64,000 nucleotides of DNA from Bacteroidota bacterium. GTDB lineage: Bacteria > Bacteroidota > Bacteroidia > Bacteroidales > UBA12481. This document shows positions 13,535 to 47,254 of this stretch, piece by piece. The position numbers were made by a program, and so were the translations under genes. Location: positions 6,058 through 70,057 of the forward strand of contig JABHCC010000032.1 of the NCBI GenBank assembly GCA_018669475.1. The letters are read 5' to 3'. The number at the start of each line of letters is the position of its first letter. Within the stretch, counting starts at the first letter, position 1. The notes beneath the pieces were generated by a model. It was not told the DNA's origin. It was given only the letters and a program-made list of their open reading frames with translations, and did no database searches.

Positions 13535-13547
13535 ACGGCTGAAAATG

Positions 13548-13581
13548 AAGCAGTTACTCATTAATCTGAGTAGCTGCTTTA
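13548..13581. terminator. Hairpin between tRNA-Pro (+) and the convergent hydrolase gene (-)
   Basis: agcagttactca-ttaatc-tgagtagctgct, a 12-bp stem with 1 mismatch. The flanking T-runs are weak. Confidence 0.35.
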
Positions 13582-13604
13582 TCATTTAATGCAAATTTGC
13601 AAAG

Positions 13605-22145: not shown

Positions 22146-25100
22146 CTACCTCTTGATTACTTTCACCCAATAAGAAACCCCGGCTGTGTCAAGCAAGCGC
22201 ACCAGGTAGATCCCTGAATTATATTCAGCCAGATCCAGAGTTTGCCCCGCTGAACTTTTATGAATTATTCCATGTTTAATCTCTTGTCCCTGAAGAGACA
22301 AAATCTGATAAGAGTATTCTTTATTGGCTGGCACATCCAGTCTTACTAGTCCATCTGTCGGAATCGGATATGCGCTGATGTCATTATCCAGCAATTCAAT
22401 ATCTGAACCTGAAGTGTCACCATTACATCCTGTCACGGAGAATTCGGCTGCTGATGCCCAGGGGCCACCATTCACTTCTGAAAGGGCCACCAGTCTCCAA
22501 TACTGACCAGATCGGGTCTCGGGCAAAATAACTGTTTTGGGAGCTGCTGAATTTTCCCAGGTACCGGTTGCTACCGGCTCACCCCATTCATGGTAATCAT
22601 CACCAACATACAATTCCCAGTCCTTTATTCGGCCATTCTGACCTGATTGACGTGGCAAATAAGTGAATTTATGAACACTGAATCGCTCAACCATATCAAC
22701 CATGATGGAATGCGGATAATCTTTGGTTCCACTGCTCCAGCTGGTATGCCAGATCGTTGTAGGATCACCATCAATTGCCATACTACCCAATCCCGGATAA
22801 TTATTCTCCTCACTGTCGACATATAACAATCGCCAGGTACTAATATCAAGTTCAGCAGGATTTGTACAATCACCAACCGAAGGGCAGGTAGTAGTGGTTA
22901 CCATATCAGGCATGGTTTTACTATATACATCACCATCTTTTGTTACAGTCAGTGTAACCGAGTATGACCCGGGAGTCCCTAATACCACTTCCGGATTCCG
23001 GATATTAGCATCACTGATATAAGCAGGAGCCGGAGTAATCTCCCATGCCCAGCTTACACCCTCATGATTTAGCATGGAGTGATCATCAAAATGCAGTGTG
23101 TCGAGCATGCAATTGAAAAAAGGTCTTTCAACCCAGGGTGTAATAATCGGAGTAAAAGCCGGGTCTTGCATAGGAGATTCCCAAACCCCGCCCGATCCGG
23201 CTGCACGCAGTTTGCTGTCGCGGAAGAAGGGCATTGCCAGATTAATTTTCATACCTGCCGGATAATTGGTGTTGAAATCCTGCCAGTCATCCATCTCGTC
23301 TGTCCTGTAATACACTTTGGCCGATTTCCCATTCTTCGAATTGGTAAAAAGATAAACTAAATCTTTTCCGTCTGAAGTGGGTTGAACAATCAGGTTTTTT
23401 GTGTATTCCGAAACTGTTCCCTTCCAGTTTGTCCAGGTATCACCACCATCTTCAGATTTGAATATTTTACCAATATCCGACGACCATGTACCGTTTTGAA
23501 GACAGGCATAAATGGTATTTCCATCATAGGGTGAAATAGCAAAAAAGAGTTTCCCTTTCCAGCTTGAGCTTCCATACGGACTTCGGGTAAGCTTGCTTTT
23601 GTACAACCAGGTATCACCCCCGTCTTCACTTTTATACAAGCCCCGGTTCACCACATCGACATACAAAATACCCGGGTTGCTATAACTCATTTCCATATAT
23701 CGCACCTTATCAGAGAATGTATGAATCCTTTCATAGCTAACTCCCATGTCGGTACTTTTCCATATACTGTTACCTTCGCCCACATACATAACTCCATAAT
23801 AATTCGGATGAGTAATAATATTCCCCCGGCGTCCGCCATATTCATCCATATTAGGAAACTTACTGAAAATAAAACGCCCTTCAGGCATGCCTGTGGCCTC
23901 CTTCGGAAGTATCCATCCATTACCCAGATCATTAAAAGCCACATGGCGGCTTTTTCCCTTTATCACCCATCCGGTAGGAGACTCTGCCCCACCCATCCTG
24001 AGGGCTTTATCACCATAAAAATCAGCGACTGCAGTATTACCGTTATGGTATCTTCCACCCACAAAAAGGTCTTCATTCCAACCCTGGTCAAAACCCCACA
24101 TATCTGATCCCACAATGCCATTGATACGAGTGTAAGAATTCGAAGTGCTGGTGAAGTCATCACTGCTTAATGTCATCCCTCCATCTGTTGCAACCCAGGT
24201 ATTACCGTTTGGCAACATCTTAATATCCTGGATATCAGGATGGATACTAAAATCACCTCCATATCCACCAACTTTAGCGAAATTCACTCCCCCGTCAGTC
24301 GATTTAAATAAAGTACAGGTTCCCCAAAAAACAGTATTTTCATTATTTGGCGAAACAGCTAAAACGTAATCGAAATATCCTTGTCCGGTAGAAAAACCGC
24401 CCAATCCAGCTTGAGATCTTGGTTCACCTTTTTTCGTGAGTTCCCAGGTCCATGAATCAGCACTGTGCGTACCCTTATAAATATAGGCATACTGTTCTTC
24501 CCCTTCTGAAACCAACATTGTGGCGTATATAATATTTGAATTTGCCTGTGTCACCGCCAAAAGAGCCCCACTGTGATTCGTATGTTCGGCTGGGAAATTA
24601 TCATCCTTCGAAAATGATGCACCGCCATCTCTGGATATAGTCAGCTCAAAAACACCACCATTCGAGGCAGATATCCCATATATAACATTGTTATCGTCTG
24701 GTTTGATTTCTACATCCCATGTTTTAGTACTCCAGGATTTTGTCCAGCTATCTCCACCATCCGTACTGATGAATATTCCTTTGTCAGCAGCTGCAATGAG
24801 TTTGTCAGGAGAGCTATAATCAATAATGAGCCTGCTGGCTGCAAACAGATCTGAACTTTCAAGCATCGGGATCCAGTTCAGGCCAGCATCTATAGTTTTA
24901 TGAATTTGACTACCGGCTGAAACATAAACAATATCAGGGTTCTCGGGGTGAATAGCAACAGCTGTGACCCCGCCACCGAAAGGATATCCTTGTCCTGATA
25001 ATTGCCAATTACGCCCTCCGTCACTTGTCTTATTCACATATCCTGTTTCTGCTCCTGCAAACAAAATCTCATTATTCGAAGCAGCCACATCAAAAGAATA

Positions 25101-25603
25101 AACATTCACCTGCCACGGACAAGATAAGGGGGCTTGCTGAGCGCCAGATGAATTCAGCCAGAAAGTCTGTTTTGGCCCCAGGAAGGTCCAGTTCGATTGC
25201 TGATCACTACCGGATTTATAAATCAATGGTGCTTCACGCTGAGCCTTCAGAAGGTTTTCCCTATACAGATTTAGATCTGGCAATTGTATTGAACCATCAT
25301 CAAGAACATAAGATTCAACTGCTCTCCTCCATATTTTGTAATATCTTATAATAGCATTCTTTCCTCCCGGATGGGTACTCATATAAGCCTGGTAATCTGC
25401 TTCTATCTCATTAAAATTGACCTGATCCTGATAAAGCATTTTTGCCCAATCAGGATAGCTATCACTATAAGCAGGCTTATAACTTTTAATCACTCCAGGG
25501 ATTTCATCATAAGGAGTAAATTGAGCCTGTGCTGACCCAGAAAGGCTGTAAACACCTATGAACAAGGCAATTTGAACTATGTGAAAAAAATTTGATTGTG
25601 TCA
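22146..25603 (-). CDS. Large secreted BNR/Asp-box repeat protein (Vps10/sortilin-like) with an F5/8-type-C (discoidin-like) domain and a T9SS C-terminal sorting domain
   Basis: At least 8 SxDxGxxW/F Asp-boxes (TSDGGRNW, TIDAGLNW, STDGGDSW, SRDGGASF, STDGGVNF, STDMGVSY, SEDGGDTW x2). The C-terminus reads YPIPTDGLVRL...GIYLVRLLDTAGVSYWVKVIKR. The start is taken at MTQSNFFHIV. Confidence 0.75.
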
Positions 25604-25675
25604 TACAATTTGGTCTTTTTTGGAAAGACAAAAGTACAACAAAACCCAGTGATTTCAACAAAAGAACTGACAAGA

Positions 25676-25810
25676 AGGGGACAGGGGACAAGGGACAGGG
25701 GGGACCAACGACCAATGACAAACGACCAGGGACCCGGACCCCGGACTTCGGACTTCGGACTTCGGACCCAGGATCCCGGACCCCAGACTTCTTTCCCCAG
25801 ACTTCGTCCT
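25676..25810. repeat. About 135 bp of degenerate tandem heptanucleotide repeats (GGGGACA x3, then GACNNNN/CGGACYY units including GGACTTC x3)
   Basis: 7-bp periodicity is visible directly. It lies in the promoter region of the BNR protein gene, just after the end of the PAS kinase gene. The plus-strand ORF 25592..25831 is an artefact of the repeat. Confidence 0.8.
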
Positions 25811-28136
25811 ACTTCTTCAATGGAATTGTAAAATAAAACACTGACCCTTTTCCAACTTCAGATTCGACCCAAATATTTCCTCCCAGCAATTCGACGTAGG
25901 CTTTTGTGATAGACAATCCTAAACCTGAACCTTCAATAGTTTTTGACGCAGTCAATTCTATATGTGTGAAGCGCTCAAATATCAGTTGCTGTAGATCTTT
26001 AGGTATACCCATGCCAGTATCTTTTACAAAGAATTCGACAAAGCCATTTCTTTTCAGACATCCAAACTCAATAGAACCCCGTATGGTATATTTTATGGCA
26101 TTTTTTACCAGGTTAATAAAAATTCCATGCAACTTTTCACCATCCGTTTTCACAATTAAGCCGGATTCCAGTAATAAATCATTATACGAGAACTGTATTC
26201 CTTTGTTCTCAACCTCTGGTTTGAAGAAATTGTAAATATCTACAAGTTGCTCATTAATATTTACATCTGAAATAGAAACATTCATCTGTCCAGCCTCTAA
26301 TGTAGACATCTCAATCAAGTCATTGATGGTGTTGAGCATGCGCATTCCACTCTTTTCAATTATCTTAATATACTCCTGCTGTTCATCGCCAGAAAGATTT
26401 GGTTCTTTAAGTAGTTCTGAGAATCCGAGAATACCATTCATGGGTGTGCGGATTTCATGGCTCATATTAGACAAAAATGCTGATTTCAGACGATCAGACT
26501 CTTCAGCCTTATTGAGTGCAGCAATCAAATCGCCCTCTGCCTGCTTTCGCGAAGTGATGTCACGATTATTGCCACGCCTGCCGAGATAAAGCCCATTATC
26601 ATCAAACACCGGAGTGCAATTATGTTCAATCCACCGTAATTCACCTCTACGATGAATGATTGGAAATTCCATGCTGACCATTGGTTTATTTCTATCCTCC
26701 TGGTTTTCATAATGGGCCTGAACCTTATCTACATGATCAGGATGAACCAGACTGAATAACAACTCAGGATTATTAGTAAATTCAGATGCACTGTATCCTG
26801 TTATGCGTTTGCAAGAGTCTGACAAATAAACGTATTTCCCATCCGGGTCTATCCAATACTCCCAATCGTAAGTGTTATCAGCTAACAGTCGGAATTTATG
26901 TTCACTTTGAAGTAGTTGGATCTCCATCTCCTTCCGTTCTGTAATATTTCTGAATATCTCAAGTTTACAAATACTACCATCCGGGTTATTAAATGGTGTG
27001 TCAACGAGATCATAGGTTTGGCCATTTCTTGGGGATGTCCATTCCCATTGCAATGTTTTCCCAGCAAAAACATCATCGTTCTTGCAAAAAGAGCATGGTT
27101 CATTATAATTATGGAAATACTTATAGCACTTTTTACCTTCAGGAGGGCCAAGATCCCTTATTAGGGCCCGATTAACAAACTGAATATCATAGTCCTTATT
27201 GACAATGTATATCCCATCGGTCATTGATTCGAAAATCGCATAAAAATTATCCCTCTCAGCTTGGAGTTTTGATTCTGCTTGCTTACGCTCAGTAATGTCC
27301 CGGGCAACACCTAATACCACTGATTTACCTTTAATCTTAACAGGATAAGAACTTATTTCAGTAGTAATCTGTTTTCCATCCTTACAATTCAAAACAAATT
27401 CCTCAGGACCAGTACCATGACCTTGAATGTTTTTCAGTAATAATGCTGATACTTTGAGGATTTCCTTAGGAGATAATAGTTTAAGTTGAAAAAAATTAGC
27501 CCCTATCAGCTCTTCTCTGCTATAACCGAGCATATCTTCAGCAGCCTTGTTTCCATCGAGGAATTTTCCTTTAAAGTCATTCAGATAAATTGCATCAGGA
27601 GCAGATTCAAAAATAATCTTCAACCTTTCTTCCGAGTTTCTCACCTCCTCCTCTAACTTTTTGCTCCCGGTATCATCTTTATAAACTGCAACAATCTCTC
27701 CTGATGACAGTTTGTAAATATAATTCTCCCTATATCCCTGAATCCTGTCATCTTTATAGATAGATATCGGAAAGTGTACCGGATTTCCACTTCTCCATAC
27801 ATCCTGAAAAACCTTTAGCAATCCAAATTTCTTAATGCCGGGAAATACATCAGTCACCCTTTTTCCTAATACTTCTTCCTTAGATACCTGCTCGACTTTC
27901 TCCGCCATTGGATTGAAATCAAGAAAGATAAAATGCTGCCCTTTGTCAATTGCCTTATAAATAGCAATGCAGTTTATTGTATTCTGAACAATACCTTTAT
28001 ATCTCTCTTCACTAATCTGTAGCCTTTCAGAAACATTCTTGTATTCATCAAAAGATCTCTGCAGCCCGGCATTCCTGACTTTTAGCTGGTCATTTTCTCT
28101 TTTAAGTTCTTCAAATGCTTTATCCGAATACTGCAT
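25809..28136 (-). CDS. Multi-PAS sensor histidine kinase (cytoplasmic; no receiver domain)
   Basis: Several PAS/PAC-like segments, H-box SHEIRTPMNGILGF and HATPase motifs (DTGMGIP, GSGLGL). N-terminal coiled coil. Confidence 0.85.
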   Translation of the reverse strand: MQYSDKAFEELKRENDQLKVRNAGLQRSFDEYKNVSERLQISEERYKGIVQNTINCIAIYKAIDKGQHFIFLDFNPMAEKVEQVSKEEVLGKRVTDVFPGIKKFGLLKVFQDVWRSGNPVHFPISIYKDDRIQGYRENYIYKLSSGEIVAVYKDDTGSKKLEEEVRNSEERLKIIFESAPDAIYLNDFKGKFLDGNKAAEDMLGYSREELIGANFFQLKLLSPKEILKVSALLLKNIQGHGTGPEEFVLNCKDGKQITTEISSYPVKIKGKSVVLGVARDITERKQAESKLQAERDNFYAIFESMTDGIYIVNKDYDIQFVNRALIRDLGPPEGKKCYKYFHNYNEPCSFCKNDDVFAGKTLQWEWTSPRNGQTYDLVDTPFNNPDGSICKLEIFRNITERKEMEIQLLQSEHKFRLLADNTYDWEYWIDPDGKYVYLSDSCKRITGYSASEFTNNPELLFSLVHPDHVDKVQAHYENQEDRNKPMVSMEFPIIHRRGELRWIEHNCTPVFDDNGLYLGRRGNNRDITSRKQAEGDLIAALNKAEESDRLKSAFLSNMSHEIRTPMNGILGFSELLKEPNLSGDEQQEYIKIIEKSGMRMLNTINDLIEMSTLEAGQMNVSISDVNINEQLVDIYNFFKPEVENKGIQFSYNDLLLESGLIVKTDGEKLHGIFINLVKNAIKYTIRGSIEFGCLKRNGFVEFFVKDTGMGIPKDLQQLIFERFTHIELTASKTIEGSGLGLSITKAYVELLGGNIWVESEVGKGSVFYFTIPLKK

Positions 28137-28300
28137 AATAAAACCTTCAGTAAGTTAAATAAACACAATAGATTATTCCCAATCTTTCACCTGATATCAA
28201 GTACACTTAAGTATCAGAGTATTTTAACTACTAAGATATGCAACTGGTCTCAAATTACATAGAATAATATCCCATTATGGATCAACTATTTGACCAAAGA

Positions 28301-28345
28301 TCCCGGACCTCGGACATCGGACCCCGGACCCTTGTCCGGCCCCTG
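28301..28345. repeat. CGGACYY-family heptamer tandem repeat (atcccgg acctcgg acatcgg accccgg acccttg)
   Basis: Same repeat family as 25731-25800. It lies in the divergent promoter region between the PAS kinase and the methyltransferase. Confidence 0.7.
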
Positions 28346-28401
28346 TGATTTGAATAACAACAATCTCTCCCCATATTTGAACTCTTAAAGAAGATTAAAT
28401 T

Positions 28402-29193
28402 ATGGCTGGTTGGTATGAGCGTCGTTTGTTCTTTACTAAATATATATTCAGAATCTGGTACAAATTTGTGAATCGGGTCGACCGTAAAGGTGAGTTGGTT
28501 TTTATGAATTATGGTTTTAGTAATGGTGAACCCACCCCAGACCTGGAACCCAATGAGGAGTCTAATCGCACATGCATTCAGCTGTATGATCAATTAGTAA
28601 AAAATTCGGAGATCAAGGACAAGCATATACTTGAGGTCGGATCAGGCAGAGGTGGTGGACTGGCCTTCCTTACCCAACGCTATAAACCCAAGATGGCCAC
28701 TGGTTTAGATCTAAATAAAACAGCCATCAGTTTTTGCAATAAAACACATGCCCACAAGGGTCTGAAATTCCATCATGGACATGCAGAAAAACTTCCTTTC
28801 GAGGATAATTCCATGGATATTGTAATAAACGTTGAGTCGAGTCATCGCTATGAAAATATGCATGCCTTTCTGGCTGAAGTCAAGAGGGTTCTTCGTCCGG
28901 GAGGTTCTTTCTTATTAACCGATTTCAGGTATGATCATCACCTTGAGAAATTCAAACGTGATATTCAAGCCGCCGGAATGAATATCGTCAACAACAGCCT
29001 TATCACATCTTTTGTGGTTGAAGCTCTGAAGAATGACAACTCGCGAAGGGTAGAGCTTGTTAAACGTTTGGTTCCCTGGTTTCTGCACAAGCACGCACTG
29101 GAATTCTCAGGTGTAGTGGGCTCCCGCAGCTATAATAATTTTGAATCCGGCAGGTGGTCATATCTCAATTACCATCTCAAAAAAGAAATGTAG
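28402..29193 (+). CDS. Class I SAM-dependent methyltransferase
   Basis: Motif I ILEVGSGRGGG and post-I D, with motif II/III (VLRPGGSFLLTDF). Confidence 0.75.
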   Translation: MAGWYERRLFFTKYIFRIWYKFVNRVDRKGELVFMNYGFSNGEPTPDLEPNEESNRTCIQLYDQLVKNSEIKDKHILEVGSGRGGGLAFLTQRYKPKMATGLDLNKTAISFCNKTHAHKGLKFHHGHAEKLPFEDNSMDIVINVESSHRYENMHAFLAEVKRVLRPGGSFLLTDFRYDHHLEKFKRDIQAAGMNIVNNSLITSFVVEALKNDNSRRVELVKRLVPWFLHKHALEFSGVVGSRSYNNFESGRWSYLNYHLKKEM

Positions 29194-29227
29194 TTTACTA
29201 TATTTGATAACTGTAAAACTACATTAT

Positions 29228-29821
29228 ATGCCTTCTCATCGCTTTGCCATGGGATTAGTACTAATTCCCATACTTTGCGCATTAAGTATGATCATTCTCA
29301 ACATTGACTTATTGATTCGCTACATCAGTGTAATATTCACCACTATTCTTTTTAATGGACTCGTGGTGATATACTACAAAAAGGAAAGAAAGCTGATCGA
29401 GAATGGTAAGATACACATCTTTGTTGAAGACAAGCATCGCAAAAACTTCAAATGGCATCGAGCGGTTTTTATTGTAATCAGTGTCTTCCTTATCATTCAA
29501 ATACTATCTGATTTAGCATTCGTCTGGGGAAGTAGAACCGTAACTTTACATATTGCCGTTTATGTGCCAATCCTGATTTCAATCCTCATGTACGACCTGG
29601 CTCAGTCTGCTATCCGAATAGGTGATAAGACAATCGAATTTGAATATGTGTTTCGAATAAGATTATCAAAGATTGTTTCCTGCCGGATGGATGAATTTGA
29701 CTTATTCCTCGAACTCAAAAGTGGCAAAGAATTTCATCTTGATATCCGGAGAATAGAAGATTATGAGGAACTAAAAACCATCCTTGAGCAAAAACTTACA
29801 ACTCGAGTACAAATAATTTGA
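29228..29821 (+). CDS. Hypothetical membrane protein (4 TM helices plus a C-terminal soluble domain)
   Basis: Hydrophobic helices. The start is taken at MPSHRFAMG, the internal Met of the tracked ORF 29141..29821. Confidence 0.4.
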   Translation: MPSHRFAMGLVLIPILCALSMIILNIDLLIRYISVIFTTILFNGLVVIYYKKERKLIENGKIHIFVEDKHRKNFKWHRAVFIVISVFLIIQILSDLAFVWGSRTVTLHIAVYVPILISILMYDLAQSAIRIGDKTIEFEYVFRIRLSKIVSCRMDEFDLFLELKSGKEFHLDIRRIEDYEELKTILEQKLTTRVQII

Positions 29822-29854
29822 TGCATATGATTCACGAAAGTGTCATTTCACCAA

Positions 29855-29880
29855 ATACCGGACCACGGACCCCGGACCAA
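29855..29880. repeat. CGGACYY-family heptamer repeat (ataccgg accacgg accccgg acc)
   Basis: Fills the gap between two convergent genes. Confidence 0.6.
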
Positions 29881-29884
29881 TATT

Positions 29885-31165
29885 TTACTTGAGCTCTACT
29901 ATCATCAGAACCGGATTGCTATTTGTACTTAAATTACTGATCATTACCCTGTACCTGTTTGCAGCCTCCTTATTTTTGATAACAATATTTTTTTCTTGTT
30001 CAAGTGAACCTTCAATTAAATCTACTGATTGTATGAGCTTAAAAAAGTATTGCCCCTTTTCAGTATACCAGAAAGGCCAAAAGGAAGGGCCTCCATCATA
30101 ATCGTTTTGCACGCCCTCTTGTTGATAATCCGGATTTGATACCAGGGATATCTTTCCAGATGCTTTTTCAAAGACGGCAAACTCCAGTTTGTTTTTAAAA
30201 AAGAACTTCAGGTACCAATTATTCCTGGTTTCCATTCCATTAATATCACGGATATACTTATGTTTTTCTCTATCGTAACGATCAAAATCCTCCATTGGGT
30301 CAAATGGCATCTTGTATTTGCCAAGAGACCAGCTTAATGCTGGTTCAAATCGTCCATCCGGAGTGGCTCTTAAAATATAATCCTCCTCCCAGGAATTGCA
30401 AAGAACACCATTTGGTGAATTCATCATGTGTGGTGAAAGGATACTAAGCCTTGCTGATCTTTTGAGCTCAATCTGATCTTCCAAAAACCTTTGACTGATG
30501 ATCCCGGCTGTATCATGAATGAAGTATCTGAAATATCCCCCTTCATGCTCTTGCTGAATAAAGAACCATGTAAGAAACTGATTATCACCCATGGGAATAA
30601 AATTCACTGGGGCTATCTCTGGCTTGATGTCTCTAATATGTTCACCGTCAAATGAATAGCCTGTGATTGCCCGAAGGGTGGCATTTGCAATATAGACAGT
30701 GCGGGACTTTTCATCCGGCCAGAAATCGTAATCAAAATTGTACTCGCCTGGTCCTTTTCCAATCGTTCCAATTGTTTTTATAAACTTCCCTGATCTCGAG
30801 AATACACCAAGAGGTTTTCCATGCTCTCCAACGAAAATATACTCAGCACATGGTTTAATCTTAACTTTAGTTTCCCCAATAAGGTATTTATTAGTGGTCT
30901 CAAGCGGTATATACTCTATCGATTTGACGATATCCGACAGGTAAATATCTTTCCCCTGGTTTTGGATATCCTCCATGTCAACATGATACAGGCTATCAGC
31001 TTTCACTTGCTGAGGTAATTCTTGATTATTCTTCTGAGCTGAAGATTCCTTTTCTTTTTCATCGGGTGAGCCACAGGACAAAGTAGTTATAGTGATCAAA
31101 CTTAGTAAAGTAATTCTCAAATAGTTTTGCATTCTATCTTGCTTTAAAATAAGGCTCAATTGCAA
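29885..31165 (-). CDS. Lipoprotein of the 6-bladed beta-propeller (BF3164-like) family; paralog of 16325..17497
   Basis: Lipobox TLSCGS. Shares a GKGPGEYNF motif and surrounding similarity with the other paralog. Confidence 0.5.
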   Translation of the reverse strand: MQLSLILKQDRMQNYLRITLLSLITITTLSCGSPDEKEKESSAQKNNQELPQQVKADSLYHVDMEDIQNQGKDIYLSDIVKSIEYIPLETTNKYLIGETKVKIKPCAEYIFVGEHGKPLGVFSRSGKFIKTIGTIGKGPGEYNFDYDFWPDEKSRTVYIANATLRAITGYSFDGEHIRDIKPEIAPVNFIPMGDNQFLTWFFIQQEHEGGYFRYFIHDTAGIISQRFLEDQIELKRSARLSILSPHMMNSPNGVLCNSWEEDYILRATPDGRFEPALSWSLGKYKMPFDPMEDFDRYDREKHKYIRDINGMETRNNWYLKFFFKNKLEFAVFEKASGKISLVSNPDYQQEGVQNDYDGGPSFWPFWYTEKGQYFFKLIQSVDLIEGSLEQEKNIVIKNKEAANRYRVMISNLSTNSNPVLMIVELK

Positions 31166-31228
31166 TGAATTTATCGGGCTATAAATATAATTTATTCGAT
31201 GAGCAGTATTGAGATTTCGCTAAAAAAA

Positions 31229-31257
31229 AGTCCCCCGCTAATTCACGGGGGACTTTA
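31229..31257 (-). terminator. Rho-independent terminator of the flotillin operon
   Basis: On the minus strand: agtcccccg-tgaattag-cgggggact followed by tttttttt. Confidence 0.7.
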
Positions 31258-31276
31258 AGTACATAAATTCCTGTGT

Positions 31277-32725
31277 TTACTCTTCAGAGTCTTCAACATC
31301 AGCATCCTCAACCATATCTTCTGTTGGGTCGATATCTGATATCTGGTCACTCAGCTCTTTTTCTTTTTTCCCTATCAGATAATCGGGTAATTCTAATCCT
31401 GCCATTTTAAATAGTTCTTCAAACGGTGGGATTGATCCCAGCATTCCTGACAAGAAATTAGCCGATGTAGGTGATTTACCATCTGCACCGCTTGACATGT
31501 TATCCCAAACGGTGATTTTATCAATCTTCAGATTCTTAATCGCTTCAACCTGGGTTTTCACCAACTCTGGCAATTTATCAGTTATCATCAGCATTACCGC
31601 TGATTTAGCATCTTCTCCGGCAGCTTCTACTATTTTATCAAATCCATCAGCCTGCTTACTCAATATTTCATAAATACCTTTCGCTTCGGCTTCCATCTTC
31701 ATAAATATTGCATCTGCATCACCTTTTGCATGCCTTCGTGTTTGTTCTGCAATCGCCTCAGCATTTATCTCAATTTTCTCCTTGTCAATCTGAGCAGGCA
31801 CCACAATATTTGCAGTTTGAGATGCACGATCTCTTTCTGCACGAACCGTTTCAGCTACCCTCTCTGCTCCATATGCTTCCTCGAGTGCCTTAGCCTGAGT
31901 TACTTTTTCGGCGGCAACCGCAAGTCTTTCAGCTTCAGCCTCCTTTGTCCTCCTGTCGGCATTTGAATTTGCAACAGTAATTTTGGCGGTATTTTCTCCC
32001 TCAACAGCAGATGCATCTGCACTGGCAACCTTAATCCTTTGTACCTGATGAGCATTGGCTTCACCAATTGATCCATCACGGTTCTTTTCGGCAACGCTTT
32101 TCTTTGCATCATTAATCGCTTTAGCAGCAGCCTCTTTACCCAGAGCATTAATGTAGCCAGATTCATCGTTGATGTCAGTGACGTTTACGTTGATTAATTT
32201 CAAACCAATCTTCTTTAGTTCTGCTTCCACATTGGAAGAAACTGCAGCTAAAAATTTATCCCGGTTTGAATTAATCTCCTCAATATCCATGGTAGCCACA
32301 ACCAGCCTCAACTGACCAAAGATGATATCTTTCGCCAGATTGCTAACGTCGGTCTGTGATAAACCCAATAAACGTTCAGCAGCATTTGTCATAGTTCCTG
32401 GTTCAGTTGAAATACCTACAGTAAAACGTGAGGGAACATCAACACGAATATTCTGCTTACTCAGCGCAGAGGTTAGATTAATCTCTATTGACAAAGGTGT
32501 CAGATCAAGAAATGCATAATCCTGAATGACTGGCCATATAAAAGCTGCCCCACCGTGAATACATTTGGCTGATCGGGATTCTGTGTTAACTCCTTTTCCT
32601 ACTTTGCCATATACAACCAAAATCCGGTCGGATGGACAACGTTTGTACCTTCGGAAAAAGGATACTATGAGAATAAAGATAAATAATACCGCAACTGCGA
32701 CTGCAATTAAAATGTATTGTTCCAT
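31277..32725 (-). CDS. Flotillin-like SPFH/band-7 protein (YqiK/FloT-like)
   Basis: N-terminal TM, SPFH domain, a long Ala/Glu-rich coiled coil (AEAERLAVAAEKVTQAKALEEAYGAERVAE) and an acidic C-terminus. Confidence 0.8.
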   Translation of the reverse strand: MEQYILIAVAVAVLFIFILIVSFFRRYKRCPSDRILVVYGKVGKGVNTESRSAKCIHGGAAFIWPVIQDYAFLDLTPLSIEINLTSALSKQNIRVDVPSRFTVGISTEPGTMTNAAERLLGLSQTDVSNLAKDIIFGQLRLVVATMDIEEINSNRDKFLAAVSSNVEAELKKIGLKLINVNVTDINDESGYINALGKEAAAKAINDAKKSVAEKNRDGSIGEANAHQVQRIKVASADASAVEGENTAKITVANSNADRRTKEAEAERLAVAAEKVTQAKALEEAYGAERVAETVRAERDRASQTANIVVPAQIDKEKIEINAEAIAEQTRRHAKGDADAIFMKMEAEAKGIYEILSKQADGFDKIVEAAGEDAKSAVMLMITDKLPELVKTQVEAIKNLKIDKITVWDNMSSGADGKSPTSANFLSGMLGSIPPFEELFKMAGLELPDYLIGKKEKELSDQISDIDPTEDMVEDADVEDSEE

Positions 32726-32746
32726 TGTTTTGTTTTGTAATTAATT

Positions 32747-33337
32747 TTAGCGAGATGGTTTTACAATTATTATTTCATTATTGAAAATATCGACTACTTC
32801 GACCACAGCACCTGTTTTGATTTCTTCATTGTGATCGGTCATAGCATCCAATGTTCGTAAACCTTGAACGGAGATCTGAACTTTTCCAAATCCCTTACGA
32901 CTAGGAGGAATAGTCAGGTATACACTGCCTATTTTCCCTTTTGCATTGGTGAGTCTTAAAGTTCCATCATCTGCCAGCTTTCCCATGAAATAAATAATGC
33001 TTGCCATTATTATCATCATCAGGAAACCTGATACTGAGGAAATGAGAATACATAAAGCAGTACTAAATCCTGCTTCAACACTGGCAATACCAGTCCATGC
33101 AAAAATTGTAAAAAAGGCGATCAGATTCTTCAAAGTGATAAACTGAAAGCCCATTCCTGCATCTCCCTCAACATTCATATCCACGTCTCCTCCGGCTTCG
33201 ATGTGGTCAATATCTCCACCAAAAAAGGTTAGAACCATTTGCACCAGGAATACCAGAGTGAATGGAATTGCGATGATCCAGTAAACCTGCTCCAGAGCGC
33301 TCAGAGTAGGCCACCAGCTTGAAATTGAAAGTAACAT
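32747..33337 (-). CDS. NfeD-like membrane protein (YqiJ-like partner of flotillin)
   Basis: N-terminal TM helices and a C-terminal OB-fold-like soluble tail (GKIGSVYLTIPPSRKGFGKVQISVQGL...VVEVVDI). It lies upstream of the flotillin gene, as in yqiJK. Confidence 0.6.
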   Translation of the reverse strand: MLLSISSWWPTLSALEQVYWIIAIPFTLVFLVQMVLTFFGGDIDHIEAGGDVDMNVEGDAGMGFQFITLKNLIAFFTIFAWTGIASVEAGFSTALCILISSVSGFLMMIIMASIIYFMGKLADDGTLRLTNAKGKIGSVYLTIPPSRKGFGKVQISVQGLRTLDAMTDHNEEIKTGAVVEVVDIFNNEIIIVKPSR

Positions 33338-33658
33338 AATTCTATTTTTTAAGGTCTAAACCAAAACTACTTTTTTTTATCACAATTTTAAAATGAAATC
33401 TGTAAACAATTTCAATAATCCGGTCAAATGGTGAGGGGGAGAATTAGCAGTTATGGCGATGAATGACAATATTTCACCGATTATTCTACATAGTTGACCG
33501 ACAATTTAACTCTAAACATGAGAGTCAAATATTACCTGGCCTTTTTAGATTGATCTTTCTGTGATAATAAAACAGAGGGAAAATCTAAGCAACAATGCTC
33601 CGATTAACTTTTTAGCTATCATAGCAATAATAGCCTCAATAATCCTTAACTACATTGC

Positions 33659-35872
33659 CTAATACTGATTTCCCTTTTCTTGTCCTGATATTTGCACCCT
33701 GTATCCGGTTTGAAGAATTCCTTTTGGGATGCTGAGCTGGGAATAAGCTCCCTTAGGAAAAACAAAATCAGGATTCCAATATAATGTGGGATTGTACTTT
33801 TCCAGATTAACAGTTTGCTCATCTCTGTCCGAAGCCCTTTTAGTTTTGATTTCCACCACACCAGCAGAGTTTTCCATCCCAGTGTACTTGATCACATCGG
33901 CTATACTTGAAGAAGCCTTAATGCTGGCTACATCGTAAGGACTTATCGAATTTAAAACTTCAACATCAGATCCTTTTACTATCCCGTCAATCACAATTAC
34001 TGCCCCACCCTGGTAATTAAAAGAATCGACTCCTCTGAAAACTATTTTGCCATTTTCCAGGCGATAGGGTTTGATGGTCATTAGTACGGATAAAATTGTT
34101 CTTCCCTGAGCCAATTGTCTCTGAATTCTCTCGTCCTGAGTCATTTTTGTCGGAGTAATTTCCATTGCCTGAAATTTCATTCTGTTATCGGCAACAAAAG
34201 TTGGTCGTTGTCGCCCCATCCGGAGGAAATGATCATTCCAGAATTGCTGCAAATGAATTATCGCCATCAGCTGATCAAGAGATGTTTTTTTATATCTGAG
34301 TGCCAGGCGTTCAGCATAGTTTTCATCCTTGCCTTTATCATTAAGGGAATTATTTCCTGTCGGATTGGTGAGTAAAAACTGTTCGATTGCCCTAGGTTTA
34401 ATAATACCTGACTCGTCAATAAAGGAGTAACAAAATGGAGAGTTGGCTAATACGATGCCCAGAGTCTGATAATACTCTCTGGTGGGATGACTATTATAGG
34501 CCGGAGACAGGATCTGATCAACAATTGACAAGCTGTGTATTAAGTTTGTTGCAGGTTGATTTGACGCCAAAGTCAGTAAATAATGATCATCTTCATGATT
34601 AAGCTGAACTGAAATCTCAACTGGCTCCAAAGGATTTTGCTCAGCCAAGCCAGCAAATCCGGTGGTACGGGCTAATAATTCACCCTTTTCATCAAATAAA
34701 TTAAGTTCAACAAGCCCCGGAGCCAATTCATTGACTGGCACAATAATTTCTCTTTCCTTGCTCAAATAGAAGCGATCATTAAAAATCTCAACACCATGTT
34801 TCGAACCCACTGCCGTAACGGGTAGAAAGATATCATCAACGCTGATATCTGCCTTAAAGATTAAGCTTTCAGCACTGGATTGGAGTAAACTCAGGCTAAC
34901 ACCAAAAGATTGAATTTTTGGCAGATCAAAAGTTTTGCGGATACCTGCTGGCTTGCTTATTCTGAGTTTCAAAGGATGGGCAGCATCCGCCAGGATTTCC
35001 AAAGAACCTAAACCTGGCGAATTTGTACTCACATTGCCATATTCTTCACCATACTGATCAATTAGTGTACCTTCAAGTTCAACAGGGTCACCCAAAACCG
35101 AAAATACAGTAAAACCTATACTAGATTTCAGCTCATCAATCAGCAGTCCTCCTTCAGGATAGAAATTTACCAGTAGAGGCAGGTTTTCTGAGGGAATAAT
35201 AACACTATTGTTGTATGTATTCCCAAAGAGTTCAGCACTAATCTCGACATGAACCAATGCAGGATCATAGCCATCCGGGAAAATAAAATCAAATTCTTTC
35301 ACCCCTTCTCTGTTAGTTCGGGATCTGCCATTAGCAAATGCTTCGCCATTTGCCTGAGCCTCCCATGAGAATGAAGTTCTGGTGGCTAACTGAGCATCCG
35401 GAAAATACATGACAACCTTAACAATCACCTCATCTCCGGCCTTATAAAAGGACTTGCCAGGTTCAGCTGAGATTAGTAAGCCCGGAATCTTAGTTTCTTT
35501 GATAATCAAGGTTTTCGCAAAAGAATTTTGTGATCCCGAATGCTCCATTTGCTTAGTGAATGCTACCAAATTGAAAATTCCTTCAGGAAGAGCTATGGAT
35601 AAGGTAAATTCTCCGGAGATTCTGCAAGCGGCCATTTTAAACTTTTTGGCTGACAGGATAATTCCTGAATCATCAAGCAGCATCAGAGTAAGACTATCGT
35701 TACAAGTTGCGTCAGTATCATGATGAATCAGCTCAGCGACAAACTGCACTGCGTCCCCTGAGGAATATACATCTCTATCAGTAAGTAAAAATAAACTCTC
35801 CTGACCTGAAAGGGTAATACTTAAAAACAAAACAGACAGCACAGTTAAAATGAAGCTCTTCCTCATGACCAT
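33659..35872 (-). CDS. Large secreted protein with alpha-2-macroglobulin MG2-like N-terminal domains and a C-terminal TonB-plug-like segment (no beta-barrel)
   Basis: Signal peptide. LLTDRDVYSSGDAVQFVAEL is MG2-like. The C-terminal GGAVIVIDGIVKG...SIKASSSIADVIKYTGMENSAGVVEIKTKRA resembles the start of a TonB-dependent receptor plug. Confidence 0.4.
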   Translation of the reverse strand: MVMRKSFILTVLSVLFLSITLSGQESLFLLTDRDVYSSGDAVQFVAELIHHDTDATCNDSLTLMLLDDSGIILSAKKFKMAACRISGEFTLSIALPEGIFNLVAFTKQMEHSGSQNSFAKTLIIKETKIPGLLISAEPGKSFYKAGDEVIVKVVMYFPDAQLATRTSFSWEAQANGEAFANGRSRTNREGVKEFDFIFPDGYDPALVHVEISAELFGNTYNNSVIIPSENLPLLVNFYPEGGLLIDELKSSIGFTVFSVLGDPVELEGTLIDQYGEEYGNVSTNSPGLGSLEILADAAHPLKLRISKPAGIRKTFDLPKIQSFGVSLSLLQSSAESLIFKADISVDDIFLPVTAVGSKHGVEIFNDRFYLSKEREIIVPVNELAPGLVELNLFDEKGELLARTTGFAGLAEQNPLEPVEISVQLNHEDDHYLLTLASNQPATNLIHSLSIVDQILSPAYNSHPTREYYQTLGIVLANSPFCYSFIDESGIIKPRAIEQFLLTNPTGNNSLNDKGKDENYAERLALRYKKTSLDQLMAIIHLQQFWNDHFLRMGRQRPTFVADNRMKFQAMEITPTKMTQDERIQRQLAQGRTILSVLMTIKPYRLENGKIVFRGVDSFNYQGGAVIVIDGIVKGSDVEVLNSISPYDVASIKASSSIADVIKYTGMENSAGVVEIKTKRASDRDEQTVNLEKYNPTLYWNPDFVFPKGAYSQLSIPKGILQTGYRVQISGQEKGNQY

Positions 35873-36040
35873 AATTTCTTTGCTACAAAGATAGTATTTC
35901 CACTTCCCTGAGCCTACCATAAGCATATAATCCGCACATAATCCAGATAAAATCCAGACATAAAAAAACCCCTTTGGTCAGGCAGGAAGCCGACGCAAAG
36001 GAGTCATTTATATTTTTACCAATATGTATCTCTAAAACTG

Positions 36041-36529: not shown

Positions 36530-36751
36530 AATTATTGAATATAATGTTAAACTTAAAATATCAATACAAATAAGATGCCAATTTATTAAAAAAAGGAATA
36601 CGAATTACAACAACAAATCAATACATATATTGATATATATCAATGTTTGGGCAGATATATGTCACAAAGGCCCTGTTTAATTTGTAATCATTCTTTTTCA
36701 AAACTTTTGTATGATTGTAAAACTTGTAATTCGAATCAATTGCATACTCAA

Positions 36752-39577: not shown

Positions 39578-39580
39578 ATA

Positions 39581-39600
39581 AAGGTCCGGGGTCCCTGAAC
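39581..39600. repeat. CGGACYY-family repeat in reverse orientation (ggtccggggtccctg)
   Basis: Two heptamer units lying between convergent genes. Confidence 0.4.
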
Positions 39601-39615
39601 TGCTCCTACTGTTAG

Positions 39616-44599: not shown

Positions 44600-44616
44600 G
44601 GTGGGAATAAGGAAAC

Positions 44617-44658
44617 CCGATTCCCGATTCCCGATTCCCGATTCCCGATTCCCGATTC
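44617..44658. repeat. (CCCGATT)x6 perfect heptanucleotide tandem repeat
   Basis: Read directly from the sequence. It lies about 55 bp upstream of the rhodanese-CTD gene start. The plus-strand ORF 44526..44717 is an artefact (PDSRFPIPDSRFPI). Confidence 0.9.
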
Positions 44659-44713
44659 CCGATTATTTGCTTTTCCCCCTCCAAATGCTACTTTTATCAT
44701 CTAAACTCATATT

Positions 44714-45394
44714 ATGAAAAAGCTGAGAACCATTCTATCTTTTGCCTTGCTGTGTTTAGCAATCTCTTCCTCAATGGCTCAGAATGATCCGTTTTTATTA
44801 ACTATCAATGTTAATCAGGCTGACTCAATTATTAAAGTCTACAGTGACAGTTCTAATTTTGTTATTCTGGATGTGCGCACACCGGCGGAATTTGAAACCG
44901 GAAGGATTGAGACTGCGATAAACCGCGACTTTTACAATTCAGGGTTTAATGATTCTCTGGCAAAACTTGACAAAAACCTTGTCTATTTAGTGTACTGTCA
45001 TAGCGGTGGAAGAAGTAATGCCGCTTCAAACAAGATGCGAGACACTGGGTTTAAGTATGTTTACAATATGTCTGGAGGAATTACTGCCTGGATTGGTGCT
45101 GGGTATCCGGTAGTTACAGGAGGTACAGGAGTTGACATCATGGAGACCAGTATGGCGGGGGTGCAGTTTTACCCAAATCCGGCAACAATTGATTCCAGAT
45201 TCTATTTGAGTGCTGATACCAAGGCCTCTGTAAGAATAATCATATACAGCCAGATTGGGCAGAAAGTATCTGAACTAACCATAGAACCAGGGGAGTCTGG
45301 AGAATTTGGCCATCAAAAATTATCCAATGGATTATATTTCTATCAGGTTTTCGATAATGAGAAACTTAGCCAAACCGGCAAAATCATAAAATAA
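44714..45394 (+). CDS. Secreted single-domain rhodanese (sulfurtransferase) with a T9SS C-terminal sorting domain
   Basis: Signal peptide, rhodanese active-site loop CHSGGRS and a C-terminal CTD (VQFYPNPATIDSRFYL...NGLYFYQVFDNEKLSQTGKIIK). Confidence 0.75.
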   Translation: MKKLRTILSFALLCLAISSSMAQNDPFLLTINVNQADSIIKVYSDSSNFVILDVRTPAEFETGRIETAINRDFYNSGFNDSLAKLDKNLVYLVYCHSGGRSNAASNKMRDTGFKYVYNMSGGITAWIGAGYPVVTGGTGVDIMETSMAGVQFYPNPATIDSRFYLSADTKASVRIIIYSQIGQKVSELTIEPGESGEFGHQKLSNGLYFYQVFDNEKLSQTGKIIK

Positions 45395-45396
45395 AC

Positions 45397-45431
45397 TGAA
45401 AACTGAAAACTGATAACTGATAACTGATAAC
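45397..45431. repeat. Heptanucleotide tandem repeat (ACTGAAA)x2(ACTGATA)x3
   Basis: Fills the entire gap between the convergent rhodanese and CsgG-like genes. Confidence 0.85.
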
Positions 45432-47254
45432 TATAAGGCTAATTTGTTTAGTGGAATCCTGTAACCTATTAATGCTCCAATTCGATTAAATCCCCAGCCC
45501 GTTATTTCATGTGACCAGGTCGGGTCTGACATGGCTTCGATATCTGAATGAGCACCCCATCCGACAGCTACTTCGAAAAATAATCCACCCATGTCGGCTC
45601 CCATGAATACCTCCGGACCTCCTCCGGCTAAGTCACTGTTTATCAACTTGTATTTGATACCAAAATAAGGATCAAAACCCTTGTAATCAAAAGATTTTCG
45701 CATAGGATTCACTCCTAAAAGAAATTCACCTGAGAAGTTATTGGCAAAAAGCATATTTCCGTCGGAATCATTATACCCAATAAGTCCGAACTGTCCTCTG
45801 AGTCCAAGCCATAGCACGTGATTAATCCAATCAGCGTTTTTAAAATTTGGATAATACTCCAGTCCAAGATCCAGATGTATGAGGGCATCTGACCATACTC
45901 CATAAATATTAATTCCGCTTGTTAAGCGAAATGGAGTGTAATGCATTAAACGCCCTTTGTAAATAATATTATTTTGGATATCTCTTCCCAGTACTACTCC
46001 ATTCAGATCAGCTAGCGCAGCATCAAATTCCACTGATTGAATCTTCAATAATCCAACCCTGCTAATTCCGGTCACCTTACTTTTGCCAGTAATGGAAGAG
46101 ACAGTCTCTTTTGGAAGGGTGATCAGGAAAGAATGCCCCTTTACAACACCTTCATCCGAGCCACCACCAATAACCGCTACAGGAGCACCATCTGTACCCT
46201 GCCTGATATCCATTATGGCCAGGTTTTCTCCTCTATCTTTTTTTTTTGATTTCTTAAGTTCTATTACTGTACCCTGAAAGTTCTTTGTTTTTATTTTACC
46301 CTCAAAGTAGTCAGCAAGATATTGAGCCGCATTCAATAAGGCAAGTTGTGATGCCTTACCGGTAATTGTATTCTTAAAATCAGTGGCTCCACCATTAAGT
46401 GTAACTCCACCAAGCACGCCACTCTCCAGGTTGATCTGATTTTTTCCTTCAGCCTTTGCCATCTCAGAACAAATGAAGATTACCTCTCCTGTACTGACAT
46501 CAATAATCTTAAGTGTAAATTTAACTAAAGCCTCTAACTCCTTTACTTTCAGGTCAGGAACCAGGTTTTTAACAATCATGGCTCCCTGGCCCCCAGTAGC
46601 TGCAGTGGCTATGGCTTTTAAAGGTATTCCGGTAGATTTCACTACCACATCAGGAGGAAAAGCAGATCCAACTATCAAATAATCTACTCCGGTTGTCTTG
46701 GATTCTGACCCATTATTCTTCAAGCCAAGCTCGAACTGTTGCAAGTCAAATGTCTCACGGTCAAGTATTCTGAACCGATCAAGTTTGAATAACTCCTCAG
46801 TAAGCAAATCACCCATGTATGATCCCAGCATCCCCTTAGGTCCGCCGACAATATTCATCGGAGGAATCACAATGAACTTCTTGATCATTGATTCACTTAT
46901 CTCAGATGCCTCCATCGTAAATACTTTCATACCCACCTTGAGCAAAGAGAAAGATTCAATAGGATAAGCCTCACCAACTGAGTAGGAATCTGCTACTTCT
47001 GTAATAGTAATATTTGAAATTATTTCATCCTTCTTTTGAATTTTTTCACCGGTAACCGGATGTATAATTACCTCGCCTGGTGTAATAACTTTGACTAAAT
47101 CACCTTTGGTAACCTGACCTTTTTTAAGATCAAGAGTTACTTTATCTTCTCCAAGTGCAATAATGTAACCCTGAATACTATTCTCCTGAGCTTTCAAATT
47201 CAGGTATAAGGATAGCAATATTACTACTAAAAGACTGGTTTTTAAGACTTTCAT
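45431..47254 (-). CDS. Secreted CsgG/LpoB-like domain protein (hypothetical)
   Basis: Signal peptide. The segment SYMGDLLTEELFKLDRFRILDRETFDLQQFELGL resembles the CsgG-family core. The C-terminal region is beta-rich. Confidence 0.4.
   Translation of the reverse strand: MKVLKTSLLVVILLSLYLNLKAQENSIQGYIIALGEDKVTLDLKKGQVTKGDLVKVITPGEVIIHPVTGEKIQKKDEIISNITITEVADSYSVGEAYPIESFSLLKVGMKVFTMEASEISESMIKKFIVIPPMNIVGGPKGMLGSYMGDLLTEELFKLDRFRILDRETFDLQQFELGLKNNGSESKTTGVDYLIVGSAFPPDVVVKSTGIPLKAIATAATGGQGAMIVKNLVPDLKVKELEALVKFTLKIIDVSTGEVIFICSEMAKAEGKNQINLESGVLGGVTLNGGATDFKNTITGKASQLALLNAAQYLADYFEGKIKTKNFQGTVIELKKSKKKDRGENLAIMDIRQGTDGAPVAVIGGGSDEGVVKGHSFLITLPKETVSSITGKSKVTGISRVGLLKIQSVEFDAALADLNGVVLGRDIQNNIIYKGRLMHYTPFRLTSGINIYGVWSDALIHLDLGLEYYPNFKNADWINHVLWLGLRGQFGLIGYNDSDGNMLFANNFSGEFLLGVNPMRKSFDYKGFDPYFGIKYKLINSDLAGGGPEVFMGADMGGLFFEVAVGWGAHSDIEAMSDPTWSHEITGWGFNRIGALIGYRIPLNKLAL

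Follow-up and report, generated by a model that had tools for sequence, protein, structure and literature searches.

Heptanucleotide arrays in the intergenic gaps of the window

We analyzed a 64-kb stretch of DNA (64,000 nucleotides, hereafter the window) from contig JABHCC010000032.1 of the uncultured Bacteroidota metagenome-assembled genome (MAG) GCA_018669475.1, which carries tandem arrays of 7-nt units at several intergenic sites. Four of these sites, arrays 1 to 4, share units with a GGAC/GAC core and had been described in the original prediction as a dispersed intergenic family of CGGACYY repeats. That description was borne out, and two further heptamer arrays built from other units were found in the same window. 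The arrays belong to a known class of intergenic heptanucleotide microsatellites, comparable to long simple sequence repeats (SSRs) and to the short tandemly repeated repetitive (STRR) sequences of cyanobacteria, in a new host and with new unit families. The window has a G+C content of ~40% and a non-coding share of ~12%, and its proteins include C-terminal sorting domains of the type IX secretion system (T9SS), DUF5128/DUF4934 propellers, and a multihaem cytochrome. At NCBI, the BNR/discoidin protein is labelled "[Bacteroidetes bacterium]" and its 76% relatives "[Bacteroidales bacterium]". A cyanobacterial host, suggested by STRR-like units, was rejected on the basis of the T9SS sorting domains, DUF5128, and the NCBI Bacteroidetes labels. 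The arrays and the gaps that hold them are as follows.

25676..25702, + strand: promoter-proximal part of array 1, GGGGACA repeated 3.7 times, with the + strand antisense to the BNR gene
25703..25732, - strand: middle part of array 1, with GACCAAC/GACCAAT/GACAAAC on the + strand and TTGGTCG/TTGGTCA-like units on the - strand
25733..25808, - strand: promoter-distal part of array 1, with CGGACCC/CGGACTT/CAGACTT-type units on the + strand and GGGGTCC/GAAGTCC on the G-rich - strand; the gap of array 1 is co-directional and runs from the stop of a PAS histidine kinase gene (25809-28136, - strand) to the start of a BNR/T9SS gene (22146-25604, - strand)
28302..28345, + strand: array 2, 4.3 units (CCCGGAC CTCGGAC ATCGGAC CCCGGAC), in the divergent gap between the kinase gene (start 28136, - strand) and a methyltransferase gene (28402-29193, + strand; ATG at 28402)
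29859..29879, - strand: array 3, 3 units (CGGACCA CGGACCC CGGACCA; GGTCCGGGGTCCGTGGTCCG on the - strand), in a 63-bp convergent gap between a 197-aa gene and a DUF5128 gene (29885-31132, - strand)
39582..39596, + strand: array 4, a minimal array of 2 units (GGTCCGGGGTCC on the + strand, GGACCCCGGAC on the - strand), in a 38-bp convergent gap between a multihaem cytochrome gene (stop 39577) and a "Sensor" gene
44616..44664, - strand: perfect (CCCGATT)7, equal to (GGGAATC)7 on the - strand, in a co-directional gap between an aldo-keto reductase gene and a rhodanese/T9SS gene
45393..45432, + strand: (AAACTGA)3(TAACTGA)3, or (WAACTGA)6, occupying the whole of a 36-bp convergent gap between the rhodanese gene (stop 45394) and a CsgG-like gene (stop 45431)

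Tandem 7-nt units with the GGAC/GAC core are present at all four focal sites. For the motif GGACNNNGGAC, the window contains 13 matches where 0.80 are expected (maximum of 3 in 100 dinucleotide shuffles), and 12 of the 13 fall at these sites, among them the reverse-strand pair GGACCCCGGAC at 39584-39594. The strict form CGGACYY was found 25 times against 11.8 expected. A period-7 scan of the window returned 7 arrays (shuffle mean, 0.30; maximum, 2; 100 shuffles), with 0 to 4 arrays for each of the other periods between 4 and 12, and Tandem Repeats Finder reported period-7 arrays at 25676-25701, 25703-25728, 25733-25788, 28302-28331, and 29859-29879. All arrays in the window are intergenic, none being in coding DNA, and together they occupy six gaps; with these taken as independent, the chance of such placement is ~0.12^6, or ~3e-6. 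The gene contexts had been predicted correctly, with a co-directional site upstream of the BNR gene, one divergent pair, and two convergent pairs. The claim of tandem units at four loci stands for every site, but the fourth has only two units and the two other arrays of the window had been missed.

Array 1 (135 bp) is a mosaic of ~4 GGGGACA units, ~4 GACCAAY units, and ~8 to 10 CGGACYY/GGACTTC-type units, with register slips of +2 and -1. Read on the + strand over 25676-25810, its first part is AGGGGAC AGGGGAC AAGGGAC AGGGGG, its second part is GACCAAC GACCAAT GACAAAC GACCAGG, and its third part begins GACCCG GACCCCG, passes through three GACTTCG units, and continues as GACCCAG GATCCCG GACCCCA GACTTCTTTCCCCA GACTTCG and beyond. 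The predicted count of ~19 units in this interval holds only if a loose GACnnnn unit is used, whereas the strict CGGACYY form accounts for 6 units. The - strand of array 1 is the sense strand for both flanking genes, and the promoter-distal part begins directly 3' of the TGA stop of the kinase gene (25811-25809). This part contains a 35-nt block, GGGTCCGAAGTCCGAAGTCCGAAGTCCGGGGTCCG, of which an exact copy is present in another array of the same genome; a relaxed G-quadruplex (G4) motif lies on the - strand of the array at 25767-25798. The middle units we take to resemble the cyanobacterial STRR2 unit TTGGTCA. The GGGGACA block is 72 to 98 nt upstream of the BNR ATG (25604) and ~13 nt upstream of a tentative -33 promoter element, TTTG (25662-25659). 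Array 2 ends in a flipped unit that creates a small inverted repeat, CCGGAC-cctt-GTCCGG, at 28325-28340. Close spacing to stop codons was also seen at the convergent gaps: ~5 nt separate array 3 (- strand) from the DUF5128 stop and array 4 from the cytochrome stop, array 4 being oriented oppositely to arrays 1 to 3, and (WAACTGA)6 overlaps the stop codons of both the rhodanese and the CsgG-like genes.

Strand polarity, promoter position, and structure

The strand of the arrays follows the genes around them. Where an array abuts a stop codon, its G-rich strand (NNNGTCC) coincides with the sense strand of the gene that ends there, as observed for the kinase, DUF5128, and cytochrome genes and, elsewhere in the genome (see below), for leuS and tatC. 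Arrays upstream of the following gene have a C-rich sense strand, as in the GGGGACA block upstream of the BNR gene, array 2 upstream of the methyltransferase gene, (CCCGATT)7 upstream of the rhodanese gene, and CCCCWGT units upstream of a 353-aa gene. The apparent reversal of array 4 follows from the after-stop arrangement, its G-rich GTCC strand being, as in the other cases, sense for the gene closest to it. Polarity flips at convergent pairs, as seen between arrays 3 and 4 and likewise in a 74% relative (L222) and in an exbD/tatC gap (L225), which argues against a replication-strand effect. The after-stop rule is obeyed by 8 of 9 arrays in this genome and the L222 relative, the exception being (CCCGATT)7. 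Among the matches listed in a cross-phylum scan, arrays at most 40 nt from a stop were G-rich on the sense strand in 27 cases versus 10 (P = 0.008; crude open reading frame [ORF] calls), and the corresponding upstream rule was not significant (21 versus 15). The orientation of GGAC versus GTCC relative to genes gave no clear signal across the cross-phylum loci listed, whereas G/C skew on the sense strand did. The non-random strand orientation suggests that transcription shapes the arrays.

The promoter consensus of Bacteroidetes consists of TTTG, a spacer of ~19 nt, and TAnnTTTG. Promoter calls made with this general consensus are tentative, with a full match in 5 of 44 genes, and a sigma-70 promoter scan was uninformative for Bacteroidota. 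Putative promoters fall between the array and the start codon for the methyltransferase and rhodanese genes, with a looser candidate for the BNR gene. The methyltransferase promoter would comprise TTTG at 28349-28352, a 19-nt spacer, and CATATTTG at 28372-28379, with array 2 ending just upstream. In both the methyltransferase and the rhodanese gene, the array ends 1 to 4 nt upstream of the putative -33 element; (CCCGATT)7 extends from 17 nt past the aldo-keto reductase stop to 1 nt short of the putative -33 TTTG (44666-44669) of the rhodanese/T9SS gene. No focal array lies within the 5' end of an ORF or between core promoter elements, all being upstream of a putative -33 element or in convergent 3' gaps. 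Since the arrays are upstream of -33, a change in unit number would not alter the -33/-7 spacing, and the proposed effect on promoter geometry does not fit where a Bacteroidetes-type promoter is recognizable.

Array 1 showed no secondary structure beyond what its composition predicts. Its transcript-sense RNA folded no better than shuffles (z = -0.38) and formed no hairpin, and its DNA folded more weakly than shuffles (z = +2.27). As had been anticipated, readings as repetitive extragenic palindromic (REP) or bacterial interspersed mosaic element (BIME) hairpins and as clustered regularly interspaced short palindromic repeats (CRISPR) were both rejected, the former on these z-scores and the latter because the units are 7 nt long and contiguous, without spacers, as opposed to repeats of ~24 to 48 nt with unique spacers. 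Intrinsic terminators were rejected as well, with 4 terminator-like matches inside arrays against 3.6 expected. An Rfam search of the window found no family at the arrays; its only hits, both elsewhere, were a tRNA and a cobalamin riboswitch (RF00174, 85.5 bits, 51464-51672, - strand) upstream of a gene at 50220-51386 (- strand). Canonical G4 motifs number two in the 64 kb, both within arrays, at 25677-25703 (+ strand) and 44637-44660 (- strand). At least four tracts of three or more G at 7-nt spacing are present in the GGGGACA block and in (GGGAATC)7, whereas the focal CGGACYY/GGACTTC (CGGACTT/GAAGTCC) units have GG runs only and are not canonical G4 formers. G4 formation was therefore rejected as a unifying property of the arrays.

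Copy number, relatives, and wider distribution

Exact-protein look-ups recovered 9 to 10 assemblies per locus from different sample accessions, 99.95 to 100% identical to the window. Arrays 1 to 4, (CCCGATT)7, and (WAACTGA)6 showed no change of length in 9 to 10 assemblies each, although single-nucleotide polymorphisms (SNPs) were present; (CCCGATT)7 had 7 copies in 10 of 10 assemblies. The original prediction had held that changes in unit number would alter promoter geometry, and had named arrays identical in copy number in all reads and strains, and randomly distributed relative to gene starts, as an outcome that would refute it; for copy number, that outcome was observed at the four CGGACYY loci, which are identical in all of the 9 to 10 assemblies examined per locus. 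Outside the window in the same genome, a perfect (GGGAATC)n array downstream of exbD had 6, 6, 8, and 5 copies in four assemblies, which indicates that whole-unit slippage occurs in this population. Degraded mosaic arrays are length-stable in these assemblies, whereas one perfect array varies between samples. The slipped-strand SSR origin put forward earlier is supported by this sister array, with its 5, 6, or 8 copies, and by the make-up of the arrays as mosaics of mutated units. The variable array lies in the convergent exbD/tatC gap of the same MAG (L225 1595-1735), which holds a bidirectional intrinsic terminator (A8-GGGGCTTC-aaat-GAAGCCCC-T9), then (GGGAATC)n, and then GTCC-type units that abut the tatC stop codon.

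The assemblies also differ in the CsgG-like gene next to (WAACTGA)6 (45431-47254), which is split into two shorter ORFs in three of them (L216, L217, and L219). The region differs from the window by 1 to 2 substitutions and zero indels, and a premature stop polymorphism is probably responsible.

A 13-kb region of the same MAG, outside the window, contains three further arrays. The 192-bp gap between a leuS-like gene and a 353-aa gene, a gene order seen in at least 8 assemblies, including the window-matching MAG, has its own heptamer array (L225 5809-6000). This array is composed of GGGGTCC (two copies), GAAGTCC (three), GGGGTCC, GATGTCC, GAAGTCC, AGGGTCC, and, further on, CCTGTCC, CCAGTCC (two), and TAGGTTT (two), and it is the array that has the 35-nt block exactly in common with array 1. 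Alignment of the two arrays showed no similarity beyond the heptamers, and a larger mobile intergenic module common to both was rejected on this basis. The 402-kb contig L001 (ERZ27250158:k141_172588) leaves the window arrangement at 25735, inside array 1 (L001 12329-12534, also L226), and joins the kinase locus to the leuS-downstream locus exactly across the shared block. Another contig ends at 25740, and in all, three contigs (L009, L232, and L233) end inside (GAAGTCC)3. The probably chimeric contig and the broken ones are explained by the dispersal of the 35-nt block at two loci; the L001 junction is most simply, and probably, a mis-assembly, or else a rare recombinant. Following this junction to the leuS array shows that the heptamer family extends beyond the window. 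The clearest demonstrated consequence of the arrays is that they provide short dispersed homologies that break and mis-join assemblies, and the same homologies could also support recombination.

Relatives of the locus differ in their arrays. The locus with a 76%-identical BNR ortholog (L220) had no period-7 array in 23 kb, and its gap upstream of the BNR gene is only 52 bp. The 74% BNR relative (L222) carries different units (CAGGTTG three times, ACGGATM six times, CGTCACY ten times, and CCCGCAA five times) in non-orthologous gaps; its arrays, at 13459-13697 and 16723-16764, start at stop codons, with the G-rich strand being sense for each convergent gene. A 66% relative had no arrays. When the kinase was used in a metagenome scan for diverged orthologous loci, all matches were distant paralogs, with identity of at most 63% across part of the protein. 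Since the arrays are absent or different in relatives, they are lineage-specific with fast turnover and not conserved cis-elements of particular genes; their absence at orthologous positions in close relatives argues against gene-specific arrays of regulator-binding sites. Compared with L220, the interval from 28137 to 39615 of the window has an extra Sensor gene between the cytochrome and peptidase M1 genes, and a six-gene block (196-aa, Band7, DUF5128, 197-aa, methyltransferase, and PAS kinase genes) replaces a Na+/H+ exchanger in the MG2-BNR interval. Arrays 1 to 4 are all in or at the edges of blocks absent from L220.

A scan for five consecutive GGACNNN units covered one genome per species (~1.2e12 positions), for which ~1 match is expected by chance given 20 specified bases. 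It found at least 120 loci (L010 to L129; 836 kb) in many phyla. Taxa among the matches listed included Saprospiraceae, Flavobacteriales, Bacteroidales, Nostoc/Dolichospermum, Verrucomicrobiota, Acidobacteriota, Chloroflexota, Planctomycetota, Gemmatimonadota, Streptomyces, Vibrionaceae, and others. Within that set, several phyla have GGACTTC itself, the unit in Nostoc and Dolichospermum is GGACTGG, i.e., CCCCAGT on the other strand, and very long arrays occur, for example (GGACCCA)38 in Grimontia hollisae (L048). When the ascertained arrays were masked, the matches listed contained 127 further period-7 arrays with many different units, versus 0 to 26 for the other periods between 4 and 12. 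This excess indicates that the propensity is tied to the period and not to the unit.

Known heptamer repeats and the proposed origin of the arrays

Heptanucleotide repeats are the most abundant long SSRs in most or many prokaryotic genomes according to the survey of Mrazek (2007), as represented in PMC4679880, where polymerase slippage is suggested as their source. The present arrays resemble the long SSRs of Mrazek, Guo, and Shah (2007, PNAS), as these are presented in PMC4679880 and PMC4692102, in being head-to-tail heptamers at many loci per genome with an intergenic bias. They also share, on the same account of the 2007 survey, a sporadic phylogenetic spread, a preference for period 7 over neighboring periods, and a proposed origin by slippage. 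In contrast, units with a GGAC/GTCC core and this Bacteroidota host were not found described in what these papers report of the survey, which predates the lineage. A literature search found no publication on GGACTTC/GAAGTCC arrays.

Heterocystous cyanobacteria are said to contain STRR heptamers with the units CCCCAGT, TTGGTCA, and CAACAGT, reportedly described by Mazel and colleagues in 1990. The present arrays are like cyanobacterial STRRs in forming dispersed intergenic heptamer arrays, often with several unit types per gap, and STRR-like units occur here as minor components (CCCCAGT twice in the leuS array, and TTGGTCR/TTTGTCA in array 1). They differ from STRRs in the strict sense in their Bacteroidota host and in their dominant units, GAAGTCC and GGGGTCC, which are outside the three classical ones. 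The STRRs of Calothrix and Nostoc date from 1990, as cited in PMC4692102.

Rehm et al. (2015) reported GGGAATC repeats in Xanthomonas and GGGGA(C/T)T repeats in Nostoc that are intergenic, favor co-directional gaps, and have the G-rich sequence either on the coding strand, no more than 50 bp past a stop, or on the non-coding strand ahead of an ORF; they are mostly transcribed and formed G4 structures in vitro (PMC4692102). Here, (CCCGATT)7 has exactly the GGGAATC unit, the GGGGACA block is a canonical G4 motif, and the same positional rule is followed, after stops by arrays 1, 3, and 4 and the leuS and tatC arrays, and upstream by the GGGGACA block, array 2, and (CCCGATT)7. Unlike those repeats, the focal CGGACYY/GGACTTC units have GG runs only, and the host phylum is different.

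TAACTGA direct repeats were found by MacGregor (2015) in Beggiatoaceae, cyanobacteria, and five Bacteroidetes, with other heptamers in the same gaps and with close relatives that have none at the same position (PMC4679880). Long heptamer arrays in Gramella and Aequorivita were suggested to have a role in rearrangement, and S1/Csp/Csr-type binders were proposed (PMC4679880). The array at 45393-45432, in which (TAACTGA)3 is preceded by (AAACTGA)3, belongs with these repeats; this membership applies to that array alone and not to the focal ones, whose units differ, and its placement at two convergent stop codons differs from a position just upstream of a start. Regulatory heptamers are known from the hmw1A/hmw2A promoter SSR of Haemophilus influenzae, whose copy number varies between and within strains and acts via the promoter and the 5' untranslated region (5'-UTR), giving phase or graded variation (PMC8262952, PMC12721329). 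Array 1 is similar in being a 7-nt tandem repeat upstream of a surface-protein gene, whereas the arrays here showed no variation and are located away from the core promoter or at the 3' ends of genes. The TTTTGAT heptads of Vibrio cholerae ctxAB and the hmw1A repeat are true regulatory heptamer SSRs, and they differ from the arrays described here in variability or position.

Like some genomes of cyanobacteria, Xanthomonas, Beggiatoaceae, and other groups, that of the host shows a propensity for tandem repeats of 7 nt. Our preferred reading, to which we assign a probability of roughly 60%, is that the arrays were generated by slippage in unconstrained spacer, with their orientation shaped by transcription, and that they have no gene-specific switch function at these loci. 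Replication slippage of 7-nt units would create and lengthen the arrays, and point mutation would later degrade them to length-stable mosaics. Within a gene a 7-nt unit would cause a frameshift, so arrays would persist only in the spacer that separates a gene's stop or terminator from the following promoter. Transcription may act through mutation (R-loop- or G4-promoted slippage, with a G-rich non-template strand) or through weak selection in the 3'-UTR. The focal arrays most likely have no gene-specific regulatory role.

Several observations weigh against this reading. The same units and the 35-nt block recur at different loci, which independent slippage alone explains poorly; this is a hint that arrays were copied from one another or that selection, for example through a binding protein, favors specific sequences. 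A role in the 3'-UTR or in termination would account equally well for polarity that follows the genes and for arrays lying so close to stop codons. Slippage rates are not uniformly high, given that the perfect (CCCGATT)7 is invariant in 10 assemblies. In addition, the population samples are near-clonal consensus assemblies, and the cross-phylum polarity counts depend on the crude ORF calls.

It is possible, although on balance we consider it unlikely, that the arrays are functional 3'-UTR or intergenic RNA or DNA elements, in which G-rich heptamers after stops act on the transcript through G4 or R-loop pausing or termination, 3'-end protection, insulation from the next promoter, or a single-strand binder of the cold-shock type with a 7-nt footprint. 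Polarity that follows the nearest gene and flips at convergent pairs would fit such elements, as would the excess of G-rich sense strands after stops among the cross-phylum matches listed (27 versus 10), the location of the window's only canonical G4 motifs inside arrays, the positional rule, transcription, and in vitro G4 formation reported by Rehm et al. (PMC4692102), and the S1/Csp/Csr-type binders proposed by MacGregor (PMC4679880). However, the focal GAAGTCC/CGGACTT units are not canonical G4 formers, (CCCGATT)7, which begins 17 nt past a stop, breaks the rule in that its sense strand is C-rich, the arrays are absent or different in relatives that carry the same genes, and the exbD/tatC arrays sit beside a bidirectional intrinsic terminator and so are not themselves the terminator there. 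A protein that binds double-stranded DNA is a less probable explanation still, and one we doubt strongly: tandem sites for a regulator or nucleoid protein, as in the ctxAB heptads of V. cholerae, would explain why GGAC/GTCC units recur at many loci, with a GAC/GGAC core running through ~19 successive units of array 1 and present at no fewer than five loci, and why an identical 35-nt block is present at two of them. Three 7-bp units equal two helical turns, blocks of three to four identical units are common, and two arrays end immediately upstream of putative -33 elements. Yet half of the sites are at convergent gene ends with no promoter, orthologous promoters show no conservation, no candidate protein was identified, and the many unrelated units that coexist in the genome and across phyla would demand many proteins or near-zero specificity.

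The promoter-geometry reading for these loci is largely refuted. As contingency loci, the arrays would frequently gain or lose units and thereby switch or tune the gene for the BNR/T9SS surface protein, the kinase gene, or the methyltransferase gene, as at hmw1A, and the position of array 1 upstream of a gene for a secreted T9SS surface protein, that of array 2 in a divergent promoter region, and the whole-unit variation of the sister (GGGAATC)n array between samples are what such loci would show. Against this, there was no length change at the four loci in 9 to 10 assemblies that otherwise carry SNPs, interruptions in mosaics such as these stabilize SSRs, the arrays are upstream of -33 or at convergent ends without a promoter, and the sole variable array lies between convergent genes next to a terminator, all of which makes contingency loci highly improbable here. 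Just as improbable in our view is an origin as rearrangement scars or substrates, whereby arrays were created at, or promote, the junctions of lineage-specific gene insertions by templated repair synthesis or inter-array recombination. The location of arrays 1 to 4 inside or bordering gene blocks that the 76% relative lacks, the 402-kb contig that joins two loci exactly across the shared block, and the role suggested by MacGregor for Gramella and Aequorivita (PMC4679880) are consistent with it, but the comparison has a single distant comparator, two of the four junction ends have no array, and the join is found in one assembly versus the other arrangement in at least 8, including the window-matching MAG.

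Slippage in unconstrained spacer leaves a residue, namely, the recurring units and 35-nt block, the tight abutment to stops, and the position of arrays 1 to 4 at blocks that the nearest relative lacks; recurrence and abutment count in part against it, as described above. A more speculative reading, which we think improbable, is that the arrays are the product or target of an active cross-phylum process that works in a 7-nt register and reads gene polarity. Its agent could be a protein that binds single-stranded nucleic acid, or a DNA repair or replication activity by which G-rich heptamers are deposited or copied behind stops. If so, array blocks could also be carried from locus to locus in this way, accounting for the 35-nt block and the arrays at the edges of lineage-specific blocks, and the units with a GGAC/GTCC core (at least 120 loci in many phyla) would be one recognizable sequence class of that system.

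Heptanucleotide arrays, first reported in 1990, rank with the most common long microsatellites of bacteria. For specialists the picture is unchanged, the window being a solid, ordinary example of its class, and in practical terms such arrays break and mis-join metagenome assemblies. What the window adds is a marine-type Bacteroidota lineage in which GTCC-core, GGGAATC, and TAACTGA families occur side by side.

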